Below are positions 3,832 to 64,000 of a DNA stretch of 64,000 bases, piece after piece. The stretch's first letter is position 1; the number at the start of each line of letters is the position of its first letter. The notes beneath the pieces are model-generated. The model worked only from the letters and a program-made list of their open reading frames with translations, had not been told where the DNA came from and did no database searches. Where the stretch lies: positions 14,953-78,952 of the IMG/VR virus record IMGVR_UViG_3300032257_000006; one strand, given 5' to 3'. This DNA is from a virus. Its lineage: Duplodnaviria; Caudoviricetes. The translations under genes were made by a program, and so were the position numbers.

Positions 3832-4165
3832 TTTCTGTATCCTCTTGCATGCTATGCATTATACCGTCCACTGAATCCCAACCTTGTAAATAACGTTTTA
3901 CGTAGTCGGTACTTTTACCTTCTTTGATAAGTGCAAGTTTTGCTAACTCTCGCTTATCTTTATTTTCTACGCCATACAAAACCAGACCGTCTAAAATTCC
4001 GGCCAGATAGTCTGTGACCATGTCGTCAGTTATCTTTCTCTTTGCCCCTGTAATTGCCTTAGCTACAAGATCAACTTCAGCTCCCCACAACGACCAACTA
4101 AAATCAATCTGCATGTCATCGTTAACTATTAGACTTGGGTGTCTAGTATTTTCATGAGCCATCAT
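3815..4165 (-). CDS. hypothetical protein
   Basis: 116-aa ORF with GGAGG RBS. Confidence 0.7.
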   Translation of the reverse strand: MMAHENTRHPSLIVNDDMQIDFSWSLWGAEVDLVAKAITGAKRKITDDMVTDYLAGILDGLVLYGVENKDKRELAKLALIKEGKSTDYVKRYLQGWDSVDGIMHSMQEDTENGTGN

Positions 4166-4178
4166 AATGTCCTCCAGA

Positions 4179-4406
4179 TTAGTTTAAGTCATCCATATAA
4201 TTTAAGTTGTCTGACCTTCTTATATGTACACCCCAAGTATTTATATAAATAAACTCCCAACCGTCTGGGAGAGTATAGTTACCAGAATGGTCGTAGTTGT
4301 AACCTTTGTACGGCCACTTATCTCCGTAACCATTCTTCAACCGTCTTTGGGATTGCTCGCATTGAGCTTCTGTAAGTTCGATAGTTTCACCCATCATCAT
4401 CTCCAC
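4179..4406 (-). CDS. hypothetical protein
   Basis: 75-aa ORF; the true start may be the ATG at 4394. Confidence 0.65.
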   Translation of the reverse strand: MEMMMGETIELTEAQCEQSQRRLKNGYGDKWPYKGYNYDHSGNYTLPDGWEFIYINTWGVHIRRSDNLNYMDDLN

Positions 4407-4494
4407 AATTAAACATAATTAATACAGTCACTACTACACCTACAGTAAGGCAGCAGAACACCATTATTCCCATTACAAATTGAACCTCTGTCAT
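4387..4494 (-). CDS. small single-TM protein (35 aa, below track cutoff)
   Basis: MTEVQFVMGIMVFCCLTVGVVVTVLIMFNCGDDDG; ATGA overlap with the 4491 stop. Confidence 0.6.
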   Translation of the reverse strand: MTEVQFVMGIMVFCCLTVGVVVTVLIMFNCGDDDG

Positions 4495-4796
4495 ACTCGT
4501 ATAGGCTCTTCGAACACATACTCAATAGCAGACTGACGGAAACCATAAACAACCTCTTCATGATGTACTGACTTGAAGTACTCTACGTAACCATCTTCAC
4601 GCATTGCCATATGCTCATCGTAACCAAGGTTACGTTCAATCTCTTCCAACTGGTCACGATTTACATTAGATAAAAAGCGTGCCCGAGTTATCTCAGTTCG
4701 TTTATCTATGAGATCGACAAGGCCGCCCTCTACATGTACATCGTCTGGGTTCCAATTAACACAGTCGCTGTAAAAATCTAATCGTTTATTTGGCAT
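4491..4796 (-). CDS. hypothetical protein
   Basis: 101-aa ORF with AGGAGAA RBS directly after palindrome copy 2. Confidence 0.75.
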   Translation of the reverse strand: MPNKRLDFYSDCVNWNPDDVHVEGGLVDLIDKRTEITRARFLSNVNRDQLEEIERNLGYDEHMAMREDGYVEYFKSVHHEEVVYGFRQSAIEYVFEEPIRV

Positions 4797-4814
4797 CTAA
4801 GTTCTCCTGAAATG

Positions 4815-4830
4815 TTCGGACATGTCCGAA
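4815..4830. repeat. 16-bp palindrome copy 2, TTCGGACATGTCCGAA
   Basis: Between the tRNA-like 3' end and the next RBS. Confidence 0.95.
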
Positions 4831-4840
4831 AGTTAATTAG

Positions 4841-4958
4841 AGCTGAGAGCTGGACTCGAACCAACGACCTCCACCTTAATAGGGTGGCGCTCTTCCCGTA
4901 GTGAGATACAGTCTTAGCAACAGTCTCACCTATTACCTCGCCTCTGAGCTATCCCAGC
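4841..4958 (-). tRNA. atypical tRNA-like gene: anticodon ATT, 53-nt D-loop, no encoded CCA
   Basis: Acceptor GCTGGGA/TCTCAGC; TA; D-stem GCTC/GAGC around a 53-nt loop; anticodon arm CCACC-CTATTAA-GGTGG (ATT at 4878-4880); variable loop AGGTC; T arm GTTGG-TTCGAGT-CCAGC. Confidence 0.85.
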
Positions 4959-4977
4959 TCTAATTAACCTTATATTA

Positions 4978-5121
4978 CTACTCTTATACAAGAACACTCT
5001 TTGAGATTATACCCCTCCCAAGGGGAACCTGCCTCGTTTTACAGAGTGGGAATACAGGTGAGTGCTCTTATATAAAAATAGTAGAAGTGGGAAGGATCAT
5101 CACCACAATAGATCCTCCCAC
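4978..5121 (-). ncRNA. candidate structured non-coding RNA upstream of the tRNA-like gene
   Basis: 16-bp helix 4984-4999/5060-5075 whose two mismatches are G-U pairs only on the minus strand; internal hairpins; separate 11-bp hairpin 5087-5121; no ORF in the track. Confidence 0.5.
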
Positions 5122-5205
5122 CAAGCTATGACTGGTGTGATTTGGGCACCGCCCATTACGTAACTACATTGTCCTATCCTCCAGTTAAGGTTTAGTATTT
5201 AAAAA

Positions 5206-5529
5206 TTACAGTGCTTGATTAGTTAGTCTAGCATACTCAATTGCGTTTTCGGTTTCACCTGTATCCACAAACTCTTTGAGAGCAAGTTTAGGCATGTTAC
5301 GCGGGCCACGAGGCCGGCCCCTGTTGTGTGCAGAAAATATTCTTTCCTTCTTACATTGGTCTATAAGATTATGCAGCCGCTCAACAGATGGTATCAGTTT
5401 ATAAGTAATTTTTAAGGCTCCAGGAAGTTTTATATATACCCAGTCACCTTCATGATTTCCACTTTCAATAGCATCGATGGCGAGCAGTACTCGTAGCTCG
5501 AACTCTTGAAATAATTGTTTAGCTGACAC
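5206..5529 (-). CDS. hypothetical protein with an AT-hook-like RGRPRGP motif
   Basis: 107 aa, GTG start, AGGAGG RBS adjacent to palindrome copy 3. Confidence 0.7.
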   Translation of the reverse strand: MSAKQLFQEFELRVLLAIDAIESGNHEGDWVYIKLPGALKITYKLIPSVERLHNLIDQCKKERIFSAHNRGRPRGPRNMPKLALKEFVDTGETENAIEYARLTNQAL

Positions 5530-5538
5530 AATTCCTCC

Positions 5539-5554
5539 TTAGGACTTGTCCGAA
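5539..5554. repeat. 16-bp palindrome copy 3, TTAGGACTTGTCCGAA
   Basis: Between the stop at 5558 and AGGAGG. Confidence 0.9.
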
Positions 5555-5557
5555 AGT

Positions 5558-6130
5558 TTAAATGTTACAGGTTTGTACTGCTGACTTAGCCTTAATATAT
5601 GCTGAATATTTTTCATCATACGCATACTTCGCTTTTACATGGTCAGTCAGTTCTTTAATTCGTTTCTTGTCCTTAAGGATAGTACCCATAGAACTTAGTG
5701 GCCCCTTTATTCCTTTTTGGTATTCGAACAAGTTACTGGGGTAGGTGTAGGTAAGCGTATCTTTAGTACTCGCACTTTCTTTTGCGAGTGTAAGTACACC
5801 CCATTTATTTTCACCATTATTACCTGTAGTTACACCTTCAGGCGGTACTGGTACAGGGTTTTTACTGTAGATGGCTTTTGCTTCGAAGAACTTCTCAATT
5901 TTAGTCTTGTGCTCTAGTAGAAACTCTTCCAGCAACTCTACAGCGTAGCTAATCTCGGCGGCTGATGGGTTTGTTTTGCCAAATCGTATACCAGATATTG
6001 CAAACAAAGGTTGGCCGCATGGCCCTACTATCTCCATATATTTCTTATCTTCCTGAACTCGTACATGGTAATCACCGAGTCGGTTGTTATTCAATAAGGA
6101 TTGACATGCTTTACGTAACATTAAACTCAT
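5558..6130 (-). CDS. hypothetical protein
   Basis: 190-aa ORF; its stop abuts palindrome copy 3. Confidence 0.8.
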   Translation of the reverse strand: MSLMLRKACQSLLNNNRLGDYHVRVQEDKKYMEIVGPCGQPLFAISGIRFGKTNPSAAEISYAVELLEEFLLEHKTKIEKFFEAKAIYSKNPVPVPPEGVTTGNNGENKWGVLTLAKESASTKDTLTYTYPSNLFEYQKGIKGPLSSMGTILKDKKRIKELTDHVKAKYAYDEKYSAYIKAKSAVQTCNI

Positions 6131-7599: not shown

Positions 7600-7640
7600 A
7601 ATAAAAGGGCAGTACCTCAAGGGCTAGGTACTACCAAACA

Positions 7641-7789
7641 TGGTGGCGGTTGCTGGGCTCGGCCTTTGTTATCCAGCGTTAGGTTGCTTGAGCGTTTTCG
7701 ATTGGTTGTACATAAGACTCTGTAAAGTCTCATACACATAATCTACTTGCTCGTTGCACCATCAAGAGCAGCTTACAGGCTGCACCACC
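7641..7789 (-). ncRNA. candidate ~150-nt structured RNA closed by a terminal helix ending in ACCA
   Basis: 5' GGTGGT pairs with 3' ACCGCC followed by ACCA; internal hairpins GCAGC/GCTGC, a 12-bp stem with G-U pairs (GTGTATGAGACT/AGTCTTATGTAC) and GCTGG/CCAGC; no ORF in the track. Confidence 0.45.
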
Positions 7790-7795
7790 ATAAAC

Positions 7796-62730: not shown

Positions 62731-64000
62731 TTATGCTGCTCGTAGTTTAGCTCGCGCTTCCTGATGCTTGATAGCTTTTTCACATGAAGCCATGATCGCA
62801 TCATCAGACGGACGTACACCGATCTCATCAAGTCGTTGCCAATCAGGGCCGATAGATACATCAGCCTCCATTGGAATTGCATGACCAGGCGGTGTCAGCT
62901 CCATGATATCGATCAAACGATTTGTATAAGTAATCGCTTTAGATACTGGAACCGTTGACGCAACTTCATCGTAGATCGGAGCCAGTAAGATACTCTTCGT
63001 CTGCTCCATCAATTTAGTCTTATCAACCTGCGCTAATACTATTTTTAGTATGTCTGCAGCCGTGCCTTGAATAACAGCGTTAGCTGCTTGGCGTTCCATC
63101 CGTCTACGCACTGAGTTATCAGTAGAGAATATACGACTGCTCAAATGTCTGCGATTACCGTAAGCAGTTACAGTGTAACCGTGCTTTCTGCCGTAATCGC
63201 CCATCGCCTCCTGCCAAGGTTTGATGCCAGGATATAAGGCAAACGTACGATCCATAAATACTTCAGCTTCAGGTTGAGGGATTATTAAACGCTGTGCCAA
63301 TGTAAACGCAGTACCCAGATAAGCGATCAAGAAGTTTGTCTGCTTAGCTGGACGTTTACGAATCATCTGCATCTCTGCGTACAGCGGGTGCGTCTTGTCT
63401 TCAATGATAGCTTCGTAATCTGCGTAAGGCATACCTGCAATACCAGAACCTGTAAGACTGTGAATGTCCTTACGGTCATCTCCTATGTAAGCTGACATCA
63501 TTGTCTCGTCACCACATTCAGAAGCCAAGATACGTAGTTCTTGCTGACTGAAATCCGGCGCCACTATTACACGAGGTTCTTCATACGGTACCCAGATATT
63601 TTTACAAGGTTCAAACTTCTCTGAGTGAGCCAAGTACACACCGCGCATATCAGCATCTATCTGATGTTTGCTGACTGCTAGTATGTTTGGACTAGTTCCA
63701 GAAGGGCGTCGTGTTACGGTGCCACAGTTGCGTATCTGAGGGTGCATACGACCATCATCAGGGTGCTTCCATAATGGGTACTTCGTGTGATACATACTGC
63801 AGCGAGTCATCGACTCTTTACATTCCTTGATCGCTAGTAAGGTCTCGTAACGCCAATCTGTTTTAGGTACGTCATTAGCGAGGGCTATATCGACAGCTAA
63901 ACCATCAGTGCCTGGCGAACCTTCTAAGTTATACTTTTGACGGCCACTACCAAAGGTTACCTTAGAACGTAAGCGAGTCGGTAGCCCCATCATTGCGTAC
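62731..64000 (-). CDS. polA: family A DNA polymerase, C-terminal part (runs off the window edge)
   Basis: TRRPSGTSPNI, motif A DFSQQELRILA, motif B KQTNFLIAY, ANAVIQGTAADILK, motif C IYDE; frame open to the edge. Confidence 0.93.
   Translation of the reverse strand, partial: YAMMGLPTRLRSKVTFGSGRQKYNLEGSPGTDGLAVDIALANDVPKTDWRYETLLAIKECKESMTRCSMYHTKYPLWKHPDDGRMHPQIRNCGTVTRRPSGTSPNILAVSKHQIDADMRGVYLAHSEKFEPCKNIWVPYEEPRVIVAPDFSQQELRILASECGDETMMSAYIGDDRKDIHSLTGSGIAGMPYADYEAIIEDKTHPLYAEMQMIRKRPAKQTNFLIAYLGTAFTLAQRLIIPQPEAEVFMDRTFALYPGIKPWQEAMGDYGRKHGYTVTAYGNRRHLSSRIFSTDNSVRRRMERQAANAVIQGTAADILKIVLAQVDKTKLMEQTKSILLAPIYDEVASTVPVSKAITYTNRLIDIMELTPPGHAIPMEADVSIGPDWQRLDEIGVRPSDDAIMASCEKAIKHQEARAKLRAA

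Follow-up and report, generated by a model that had tools for sequence, protein, structure and literature searches.

Phages are known to encode transfer RNAs (tRNAs) whose altered anticodon loops protect them from host tRNA nucleases, including mycobacteriophage tRNAs (PMC10264068), the T5 tRNA-Lys in the case of PARIS (PMC11464382), and the T5 tRNA-Tyr in the case of retron effectors (PMC11555353). These tRNAs are of normal size, are found by standard tools, and keep a cognate anticodon. Here, we analyze a tRNA-like gene on the minus strand (4958 to 4841) of a 64,000-bp stretch of phage DNA (the window) that comprises bases 14953–78952 of a 78,952-bp IMG/VR virus record (IMGVR_UViG_3300032257_000006; completeness rating ~95%). 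Coordinates follow the numbering of the window, and L-numbers are labels of compared loci. Like the nuclease-evading phage tRNAs, this gene is located in an early/accessory region and its loop differs from the host type at a position read by nucleases (here, position 34). Unlike them, it has an AUU anticodon, a 43-nucleotide (nt) domain in the D-loop, no CCA, and a closed 17-bp terminal helix.

Several other unusual tRNAs and tRNA-shaped RNAs bear comparison with this element. The tRNA-ProN of Streptomyces and Kitasatospora, which belongs to the tRNA-ProX family, is a mistranslating tRNA of dual identity that carries an Asn anticodon on a body of another isotype; no other bacterial tRNA with an AUU anticodon was found in the literature (PMC10404621). 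The tRNA-ProX family is marked by C1:G72, A33, A34, A15:A48, G21, and a neighboring ProRSx gene (PMC10404621). We rejected membership in this family, as only A34 is shared and the element has G1:C72, U33, G15:C48, and A21. Non-canonical D-loop introns of archaeal tRNAs are cut at bulge-helix-bulge (BHB) motifs (PMC3241643) and resemble the insert studied here in that tens of nt interrupt the D-arm region of an otherwise normal tRNA gene. In contrast to these introns, BHB motifs are not enriched in the viral class described below, the predicted splice product is non-canonical, and the relatives of the phage infect bacteria. The Y RNA YrlA of bacteria and phages carries a tRNA-shaped domain on a long terminal stem and, in one species, is cleavable by RNase P and receives CCA (PMC4201824; bioRxiv 10.1101/312249). 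However, the arms of YrlA are permuted (T arm, acceptor-like hairpin, D arm), its termini occupy the anticodon-stem position, and it is marked by a Ro-binding motif and a nearby Ro60/TROVE gene. An assignment to YrlA or the Y RNAs was rejected because the element has the normal order of tRNA arms, ends at its acceptor stem, and has no YrlA or Y RNA match in Rfam; no Ro/TROVE domain was detected among the open reading frames (ORFs) scanned. The tRNAs of Lak megaphages contain 'enigmatic' introns (PMC6784885) and, as in these and in bacterial group I tRNA introns, the tRNA gene studied here is interrupted by extra sequence. Those inserts are located in the anticodon loop, whereas this one is located in the D-loop and is too small for self-splicing. 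Finally, class II tRNAs and engineered aptamer fusions in the variable loop (PMC5397188) also possess an additional helical arm and stay functional on the ribosome. Their extra arm leaves the variable region, whereas an insert in the D-loop at positions 16–18 was not stably expressed (PMC5397188).

The D-loop insert and the AUU anticodon both recur in many uncultured viruses, and we found no description in the literature of viral tRNA genes with D-loop inserts or of viral tRNAs with a CUAUUAA loop. The element therefore looks like a real type of RNA rather than a broken tRNA. It is probably a real, selected, tRNA-derived RNA gene, and we tentatively interpret it as a working, D-loop-expanded phage tRNA(AUU) that would be cut from an early transcript and read AAU.

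Structure of the tRNA-Like Element

Read directly and indexed by script, the minus strand from 4958 to 4841 forms a full cloverleaf in which all pairs are present in the acceptor (7/7), D (4/4), anticodon (5/5), and T (5/5) stems. The conserved tRNA positions are all in place (U8, A14, G15:C48, G18G19, A21, G26, U33, A37, G53, T54-T55-C56, A58, and C61). Its dimensions fall outside canonical ranges: the distance from G1 to U73 is 118 nt (canonical total, ~72–95 nt) and the D-loop is 53 nt (canonical, ~7–11 nt). The features are as follows:

4959–4968, minus strand: 5' flank GTTAATTAGA, 10/10 Watson-Crick pairs with the 3' flank, extending the acceptor helix to 17 bp
4952–4958, minus strand: 5' strand of the acceptor stem, GCTGGGA (G1:C72, C2:G71, G5:U68)
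4946–4951, minus strand: U8 and A9 (4951–4950) and the 5' strand of the D stem, GCTC (4949–4946)
4893–4945, minus strand: 53-nt D-loop, with A14 G15 at its 5' end and G18 G19 .. A21 at its 3' end
4901–4943, minus strand: 43-nt insert in the D-loop alpha region, with G15 and U16 on either side
4889–4892, minus strand: 3' strand of the D stem, GAGC
4888, minus strand: G26
4871–4887, minus strand: anticodon arm CCACC-CUAUUAA-GGUGG (loop 4882–4876, anticodon AUU 4880–4878; C32, U33, A37, A38)
4849–4870, minus strand: variable loop AGGTC and T arm GTTGG-TTCGAGT-CCAGC; the T arms of many viral tRNAs have this same sequence
4842–4848, minus strand: 3' strand of the acceptor stem, TCTCAGC
4832–4841, minus strand: discriminator U73 (4841) and 3' flank TCTAATTAAC, the last bases of which overlap a repeated module of palindrome and ribosome-binding site

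The discriminator U73 pairs with A(-1), which makes the 17-bp helix continuous, and since T73 is followed by CTAATTAAC, CCA is not encoded. An original prediction, made from the letters of the window, had described the pairing of every arm, a 53-nt D-loop with a GTGAGA/TCTCAC hairpin, an ATT anticodon, U73, the absence of CCA, and ten perfect flanking pairs that lengthen the acceptor helix to 17 bp, and our reading agrees on each of these points.

This arrangement is non-random. By analytic estimate, the chance of a flank helix of ten Watson-Crick pairs is ~1e-6, and that of a 7/7 acceptor stem together with a 4/4 D stem within ~93 upstream offsets is ~0.002. The fold energy is −55.5 kcal/mol (z = −4.4), and none of 200 shuffles (0/200) was as stable. 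The flank helix could not have been inherited from an ordinary tRNA gene, which we count in favor of a working tRNA(AUU). With the stems, the tertiary positions, and the non-chance 10-bp flank helix all intact, the earlier argument against simple decay also stands.

D-Loop Inserts in Other Viral tRNA-Shaped Genes

We searched IMG/VR with a pattern in which a GCUC/GAGC D stem is split by 32–60 nt and is followed by a normal T loop, in two spacings. One spacing returned 33 loci and the other returned at least 116. After filtering for at least 6 of 7 acceptor pairs and removing duplicates, at least 74 distinct elements remained, ~10 of which comprised a 5' tRNA fragment, a spacer, and a full tRNA. 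At least 56 distinct viral tRNA-shaped genes were found to carry a structured D-loop insert of 32–60 nt. Among the matches listed, 24 insert elements have a canonical anticodon arm (5 bp, 7-nt loop) with 15 different anticodons (TTT, CTT, GAA, CCC, GCT, ACT, GTT, TTC, TGT, GAT, TCT, GCG, GAG, CAA, and CTA), and CCA is encoded in many. Other insert elements, many of them alpha-type, have 'anticodon' loops of 4–5 nt and cannot decode. The insert is located either after G19 or between R15 and G18 (alpha type), with the gene studied here, L057, L067, L071, L083, and L239 belonging to the alpha type. Several members align with RF00005 from end to end above the cut-off, with an extra 37–55 nt placed in the D-loop. 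We provisionally define a class of genes with intact acceptor, D, anticodon, and T stems and a D-loop insert of 30–60 nt that leaves A14/R15 and G18G19 in place, and the element fits this definition.

In one diverged pair of loci, L146 and L169, the acceptor and anticodon stems differ by compensatory changes, and long stretches of the insert are identical. That the insert was kept while the stems covary suggests that it is under selection in that pair; for the element studied here, such conservation would apply by analogy only. Among the roles raised in the original prediction, that of a tRNA scaffold carrying an extra domain fits best, given the dozens of D-loop-insert genes in IMG/VR and the conserved insert of L146/L169. 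Extension of the terminal helix by at least 5 bp is rare, being present in 2 of the 71 other class elements among the matches listed, both of them of non-decoding types.

Several further observations concern individual loci. L051/L074/L082 and L063 have a D-loop insert, 4-nt 'anticodon' loops, no CCA, and terminal helices of 20–22 bp, and are clearly non-decoding tRNA mimics. Ser-type anticodons occur with short variable loops in L088 and L169 (ACT) and in L146 (GCT), and the ACT pair represents further cases of A34. A palindrome, CUGAUCAG, recurs in the insert loops of L088, L147, and L193. BLAST searches of L088 and L057 against cultured phages returned only partial matches to ordinary tRNAs. 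L047, on a contig of a Dehalococcoidia metagenome-assembled genome (MAG), comprises 31 tRNA genes and a transfer-messenger RNA within 4.9 kb and is probably a phage-type tRNA island.

The AUU Anticodon and Amino Acid Identity

A second IMG/VR pattern, with a CTATTAA loop at the right distance from the T loop, returned at least 117 loci. Among the matches listed, ARAGORN identified 17 distinct normal-sized tRNA(att) genes with a CUAUUAA loop; seven of these carry G73 and CCA, and six of those seven also have U1:A72. A34 thus occurs repeatedly in the Asn-type loops of viral tRNAs and is no sign of decay, which removes the argument against decoding that had originally been drawn from the AUU anticodon. 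ARAGORN made no call in 71 of the 117 CTATTAA matches listed. Many of these 71 are long, tRNA-like, and interrupted by an insert on the 5' side of the anticodon loop.

Judged from its sequence, the closest analogue of the element among the matches listed is L239 (444–555, minus strand), a 112-nt tRNA(AUU) with a 48-nt D-loop. The layout of L239 matches that of the element, with an alpha-type D-loop insert (40 nt), a CUAUUAA loop, U73, and no CCA. L239 begins 1 nt after a tRNA-Lys(UUU) in an array of Lys/Arg tRNAs and belongs to an unrelated virus, on a contig labeled as a giant-virus MAG.

In a family of long tRNA-like genes in IMG/VR (L247, L299, L321, L273, L272, L293, L256, L234, and L260), the acceptor and D arm are normal, and the initial 3 nt of the anticodon stem are followed by an insert of 45–60 nt, 2 nt, the CTATTAA loop, and a normal 3' half. 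The insert ends in GGTTATC in L247, L299, L321, L273, and L260, and the split anticodon stem pairs 5/5 in all five cases checked. In L228, L238, L244, L257, L303, and L324, the motif GGTTAC-TTCNN-CTATTAA occurs with the 3' part of the D arm, an anticodon arm, and a T arm; the 5' acceptor strand could not be placed, and some of these loci come after a complete tRNA.

Bacterial tRNA-Asn identity comprises G34, U35, U36, and G73, usually with U1:A72. Relative to this set, the element differs at A34, U73, and G1:C72 and agrees at U35, U36, C32, U33, A37, and A38. Thr identity needs G35 and Lys identity needs A73, and we know of no bacterial identity set that fits the combination of A34 and U73. 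The Thr-like body of the original prediction was not recovered: the best E. coli match to the 3' two-thirds of the element is tRNA-Val (83.7% over 43 nt, E = 0.01) and the closest phage tRNAs belong to various isotypes. Thr compatibility is limited to the acceptor end (G1:C72, C2:G71), and the loop is Asn/Lys-like except at position 34. In 30 ORFs scanned against Pfam or PHROGs, no synthetase domain was detected. AAT and AAC codons occur in the phage at a ratio of 52:48. As a separate observation on codon use, ATA accounts for 42% of isoleucine codons (535 codons; 76 ORFs of at least 100 amino acids, whole genome), and the phage encodes no tRNA-Ile.

Detection, Insert Sequence, and Homologs

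ARAGORN called 0 tRNA genes in the window, and Rfam returned no match in the window at the gathering score. In E-value mode, RF00005 scored 27.7 bits against a cut-off of 29 and covered model positions 8–63 only, with a degenerate second 'UAUCUCA' inside the insert taken as positions 8–14. When ~43 nt were deleted in silico, ARAGORN called a 75-nt tRNA(att) across a broad range of deletion boundaries; the cleanest deletion (4943–4901) leaves a canonical 10-nt D-loop and retains the G15:C48 pair. This suggests that ARAGORN and Rfam miss the element because of the insert alone. Because standard tRNA finders overlook this gene along with dozens of similar viral ones, phage tRNA repertoires are systematically under-counted. 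The class itself is concrete, comprising defined sequences, some with encoded CCA, and many anticodons.

Within the insert, GUGAGA (4929–4924) can pair with UCUCAC (4906–4901), although the minimum-free-energy fold favors a competing hairpin, GGUAAUAG/CUGUUGCU. The insert ends with GCTAAGA-CTG-TATCTCAC, a degenerate second copy that resembles the true 5' part of the tRNA, GCTGGGA-TAGCTCAG. This resemblance hints that the insert may have originated by partial duplication of the tRNA 5' part. A tandem duplication of the leader and 5' part was not established (alignment p = 0.064; leader versus spacer p = 0.36). The intact 5' copy is distal and pairs with the body, and the degenerate copy adjoins the body; an intact distal copy is the reverse of what is expected for an unselected leftover.

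Other origins of the insert were evaluated and rejected. As regards a genomic repeat or miniature inverted-repeat transposable element, a 14-bp terminal inverted repeat is present, but neither the element nor the insert has a second copy in the 78,952-bp genome or in public scans. Group I introns in tRNAs are sited in the anticodon loop and have a self-splicing core of at least 200 nt. At 43 nt, the insert is far too small for a group I or II intron, it is sited in the D-loop, and it has no Rfam intron or ribozyme match at E ≤ 10; a search of the insert against Rfam families at E ≤ 10 likewise returned no match. One formal BHB motif (h, 3 bp; H, 4 bp; h', 3 bp) extends across the insert. However, an archaeal-type BHB intron would yield a splice product that lacks A14 or has a broken D stem, and such motifs occur at chance level, in 7 of 56 D-loop-insert elements among the matches listed versus 6.1 with shuffled inserts. 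The loop of the GUGAGA/UCUCAC hairpin begins with CUGUU, the first five bases of the tRNA-Asn anticodon loop. The idea of a 'second anticodon' was rated low, being post hoc and involving a 17-nt loop, an implausible geometry, and no counterpart in L239.

Searches for homologs of the element itself were negative. A blastn search of 4000–6000 against cultured phages returned only a 45-nt match of the T arm to a Myrna tRNA, and the five Vibrio phages similar to SHOU24 had no tRNA match at E ≤ 1. A pattern combining the insert with CTATTAA had 0 matches in IMG/VR, a pattern search of JGI metagenomes returned one false positive, an ordinary tRNA-Lys, and a pattern for the anticodon and T arms in genome contigs recovered only unrelated Gly, Val, Arg, and Asp tRNAs. 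Among public sequencing runs, one DNA run and no RNA run was listed as containing the element. The identical sequence, without variants, occurs in Logan contigs of that single DNA run, a microbial mat metagenome, which is probably the source sample and so does not provide independent support. The assembly graph of the run breaks at a 34-bp palindrome repeat.

Proposed Mechanism and Alternative Explanations

As a working tRNA(AUU), the element would be transcribed within the minus-strand early operon, and its 17-bp terminal helix would serve as a processing stalk, providing entry for an RNase III-type enzyme or for RNase P/RNase Z. Host RNase P would cut the 5' end at G1, a 3' nuclease would trim to U73, and the host CCA-adding enzyme would add CCA. 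The mature RNA would retain the extra arm, projecting from the outer side of the elbow, and the AUU anticodon would read AAU. Queuosine cannot be formed from A34, and known anticodon nucleases recognize a different base at this position, G/Q34 (Asn) or U34 (Lys); we propose that, owing to these properties, AAU decoding would be free of host wobble modification and not cleavable at that base. If charged and used, such RNAs would widen bacterial tRNA architecture by an extra arm that leaves the D-loop, and would represent a new phage route to translation that is independent of host wobble modification and resistant to tRNA-cleaving defenses. A broader proposal, which we consider doubtful, is that D-loop-expanded tRNAs constitute a functional, virus-specific class in which the arm is kept in the mature charged tRNA and either shields it from enzymes that target the elbow or anticodon or aids charging. 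On this view, the phage gene would encode a working AAU decoder of 118–121 nt, nuclease-proof or of dual identity, beyond the size and shape accepted for bacterial translation, and the extra arm could offer alternative recognition for charging where the cognate synthetase would reject the anticodon (here, AUU).

Several observations weigh against a working tRNA(AUU). No homolog was found in IMG/VR, in JGI metagenome contigs, or among five related cultured phages. The element satisfies no synthetase identity set, and the equal use of AAT and AAC means that no codon-supply need is evident. The second-copy signal in the insert could mark a disruptive rearrangement, and a fully paired leader and trailer make a poor substrate for RNase P. 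Moreover, when the Spinach aptamer was placed between C16 and G18 of E. coli tRNA-Tyr, no RNA was detectable in vivo (PMC5397188). The aptamer result argues against retention of the insert, whereas the recurrence and conservation of natural inserts argue for it.

It is also conceivable, although somewhat unlikely, that the element is a non-decoding tRNA mimic that keeps the shape of a tRNA and is neither charged nor used on the ribosome; if not used in translation, it would point to a new family of viral tRNA mimics. It might act on a host nuclease that targets tRNAs, as a decoy or competitive inhibitor, in keeping with a CUAUUAA loop that differs only at position 34 from the CUUUUAA of tRNA-Lys and the CUGUUAA of tRNA-Asn. 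Alternatively, it might act as a 'punctuation' element at which RNase P/Z would sever the polycistronic early mRNA immediately before the next gene, the ribosome-binding site of which is located 33 nt downstream. A mimic would also account for the departure from all synthetase identity sets and for the closed terminal helix without CCA, which among the matches listed is common in the class only to L051/L074/L082 and L063, whose 4-nt loops cannot decode. The 4–5-nt anticodon loops of many alpha-type elements and the ArdA anti-restriction genes that adjoin relatives of the next gene point in the same direction. However, the anticodon arm is fully canonical (five Watson-Crick pairs, 7-nt loop, U33, and A37), none of which is needed by a punctuation element or an elbow-binding decoy, and ordinary viral tRNAs of Asn type that have CCA and are apparently chargeable carry the CUAUUAA loop as well. 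The nuclease or binding partner that a mimic calls for is only hypothetical.

That the element is instead an inactive relic, a captured tRNA gene that was recently disrupted by 5' partial duplication or a small insertion, together with G34A, and for which the time to decay has been too short, is unlikely. Its orphan status, with no tRNA match in the five SHOU24-like relatives and no homologs elsewhere, would be expected of a relic, and both Rfam and BLAST prefer the second copy (GCTAAGA.. TATCTCAC) as positions 8–14. The arrangement of a 5' tRNA fragment, a spacer, and a full tRNA is common in viral contigs (~10 seen), and an aptamer insert in the D-loop was not stably expressed in E. coli (PMC5397188). 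Yet the intact copy is the distal one and the decayed copy adjoins the body, the opposite of what a relic 5' fragment predicts, and it is from the distal copy that the ten perfect flank pairs (chance ~1e-6) extend. Evidence of a duplication is weak (p = 0.064), AUU and D-loop inserts recur independently in other viruses and jointly in L239, and phage genomes are compact, with almost no other non-coding DNA in this one. Least probable, and in our view very unlikely, is removal of the insert, either by an unknown endonuclease and ligase or by cleavage without religation, to yield a 75-nt tRNA(AUU) or a nicked, two-piece tRNA. Deletion of the 43 nt does leave a canonical 10-nt D-loop with G15:C48 kept, a formal BHB motif spans the insert, and introns of unexplained mechanism are present in Lak megaphage tRNAs (PMC6784885). 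However, the BHB motif is at chance level (7/56 versus 6.1 shuffled, among the matches listed), its splice product lacks A14 or has a broken D stem, and the phage is most closely related to Vibrio and Pseudomonas phages rather than to archaeal viruses. At 43 nt and without an Rfam ribozyme match at E ≤ 10, the insert is too small for a group I or II intron, and no RNA ligase or kinase was detected among the 30 ORFs scanned. In addition, conservation of the L146/L169 insert suggests a function in the RNA rather than that of a spacer.

Genomic Context

The gene for DNA polymerase A is split across both ends of the virus record (window 62731–63999 and L050 1–2574). The 'linear' record is therefore a circularly permuted, essentially complete genome. 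Other replication genes encode an SNF2 helicase, a primase-like protein, a DNA ligase, an SbcCD-like nuclease, a thymidylate synthase, and a deoxynucleoside monophosphate kinase, and structural and packaging genes encode a large terminase and an HK97-type head protein. The closest cultured relatives are phages similar to Vibrio phage SHOU24 and some Pseudomonas phages (only 37–40% amino acid identity for the terminase and major head protein), and the host is therefore bacterial.

The tRNA-like gene is located in a minus-strand early operon of small ORFs, and no ORF of at least 50 amino acids in the ORF list overlaps the region 4797–5205. Nearly every gene of this operon is preceded by a palindrome, TTCGGACWTGTCCGAA, and an AGGAG ribosome-binding site. 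The palindrome has ~20 sites in the window, for example at 2601, 4817, 7586, 8400, 9389, 10264, 12190, and 60226 (starts of the 12-nt core, CGGACATGTCCG), and probably serves to control the early cassettes, either as an operator or as an RNA hairpin. Further features of the region are as follows:

4797–4831, minus strand: palindrome copy TTCGGACATGTCCGAA, after which come an AGGAGAA ribosome-binding site and the start codon (ATG, 4796) of the next early gene
4976–5121, minus strand: long helix of ~24 bp around a branched domain, within the same ORF-free gap as the tRNA-like gene and immediately upstream of it
7638–7793, minus strand: 156-nt non-coding stretch with a stable fold (−52.3 kcal/mol, z = −3.9)

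Since the palindrome copy abuts its 3' flank, the element takes up a cassette slot of the early operon, with 33 nt between it and the ribosome-binding site of the next gene. A scan detected no sigma-70 promoter immediately upstream of the element; a TATAAT box is present near 5010 without a −35 element.

The downstream gene encodes a 101-amino-acid protein, relatives of which adjoin ArdA anti-restriction genes, and the neighborhood of the element might thus be accessory or anti-defense in nature. The relatives of this protein are only 41–49% identical, and none has a tRNA upstream. The neighboring proteins of 107 and 264 amino acids have zero relatives in IMG/VR.

The 7638–7793 stretch has a terminal stem that ends in ..ACCGCCACCA and contains a hairpin with GUA; it has no Rfam match and no T-loop and was not a tRNA by the tests run. 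The helix at 4976–5121 may share a transcript or processing unit with the tRNA-like gene.

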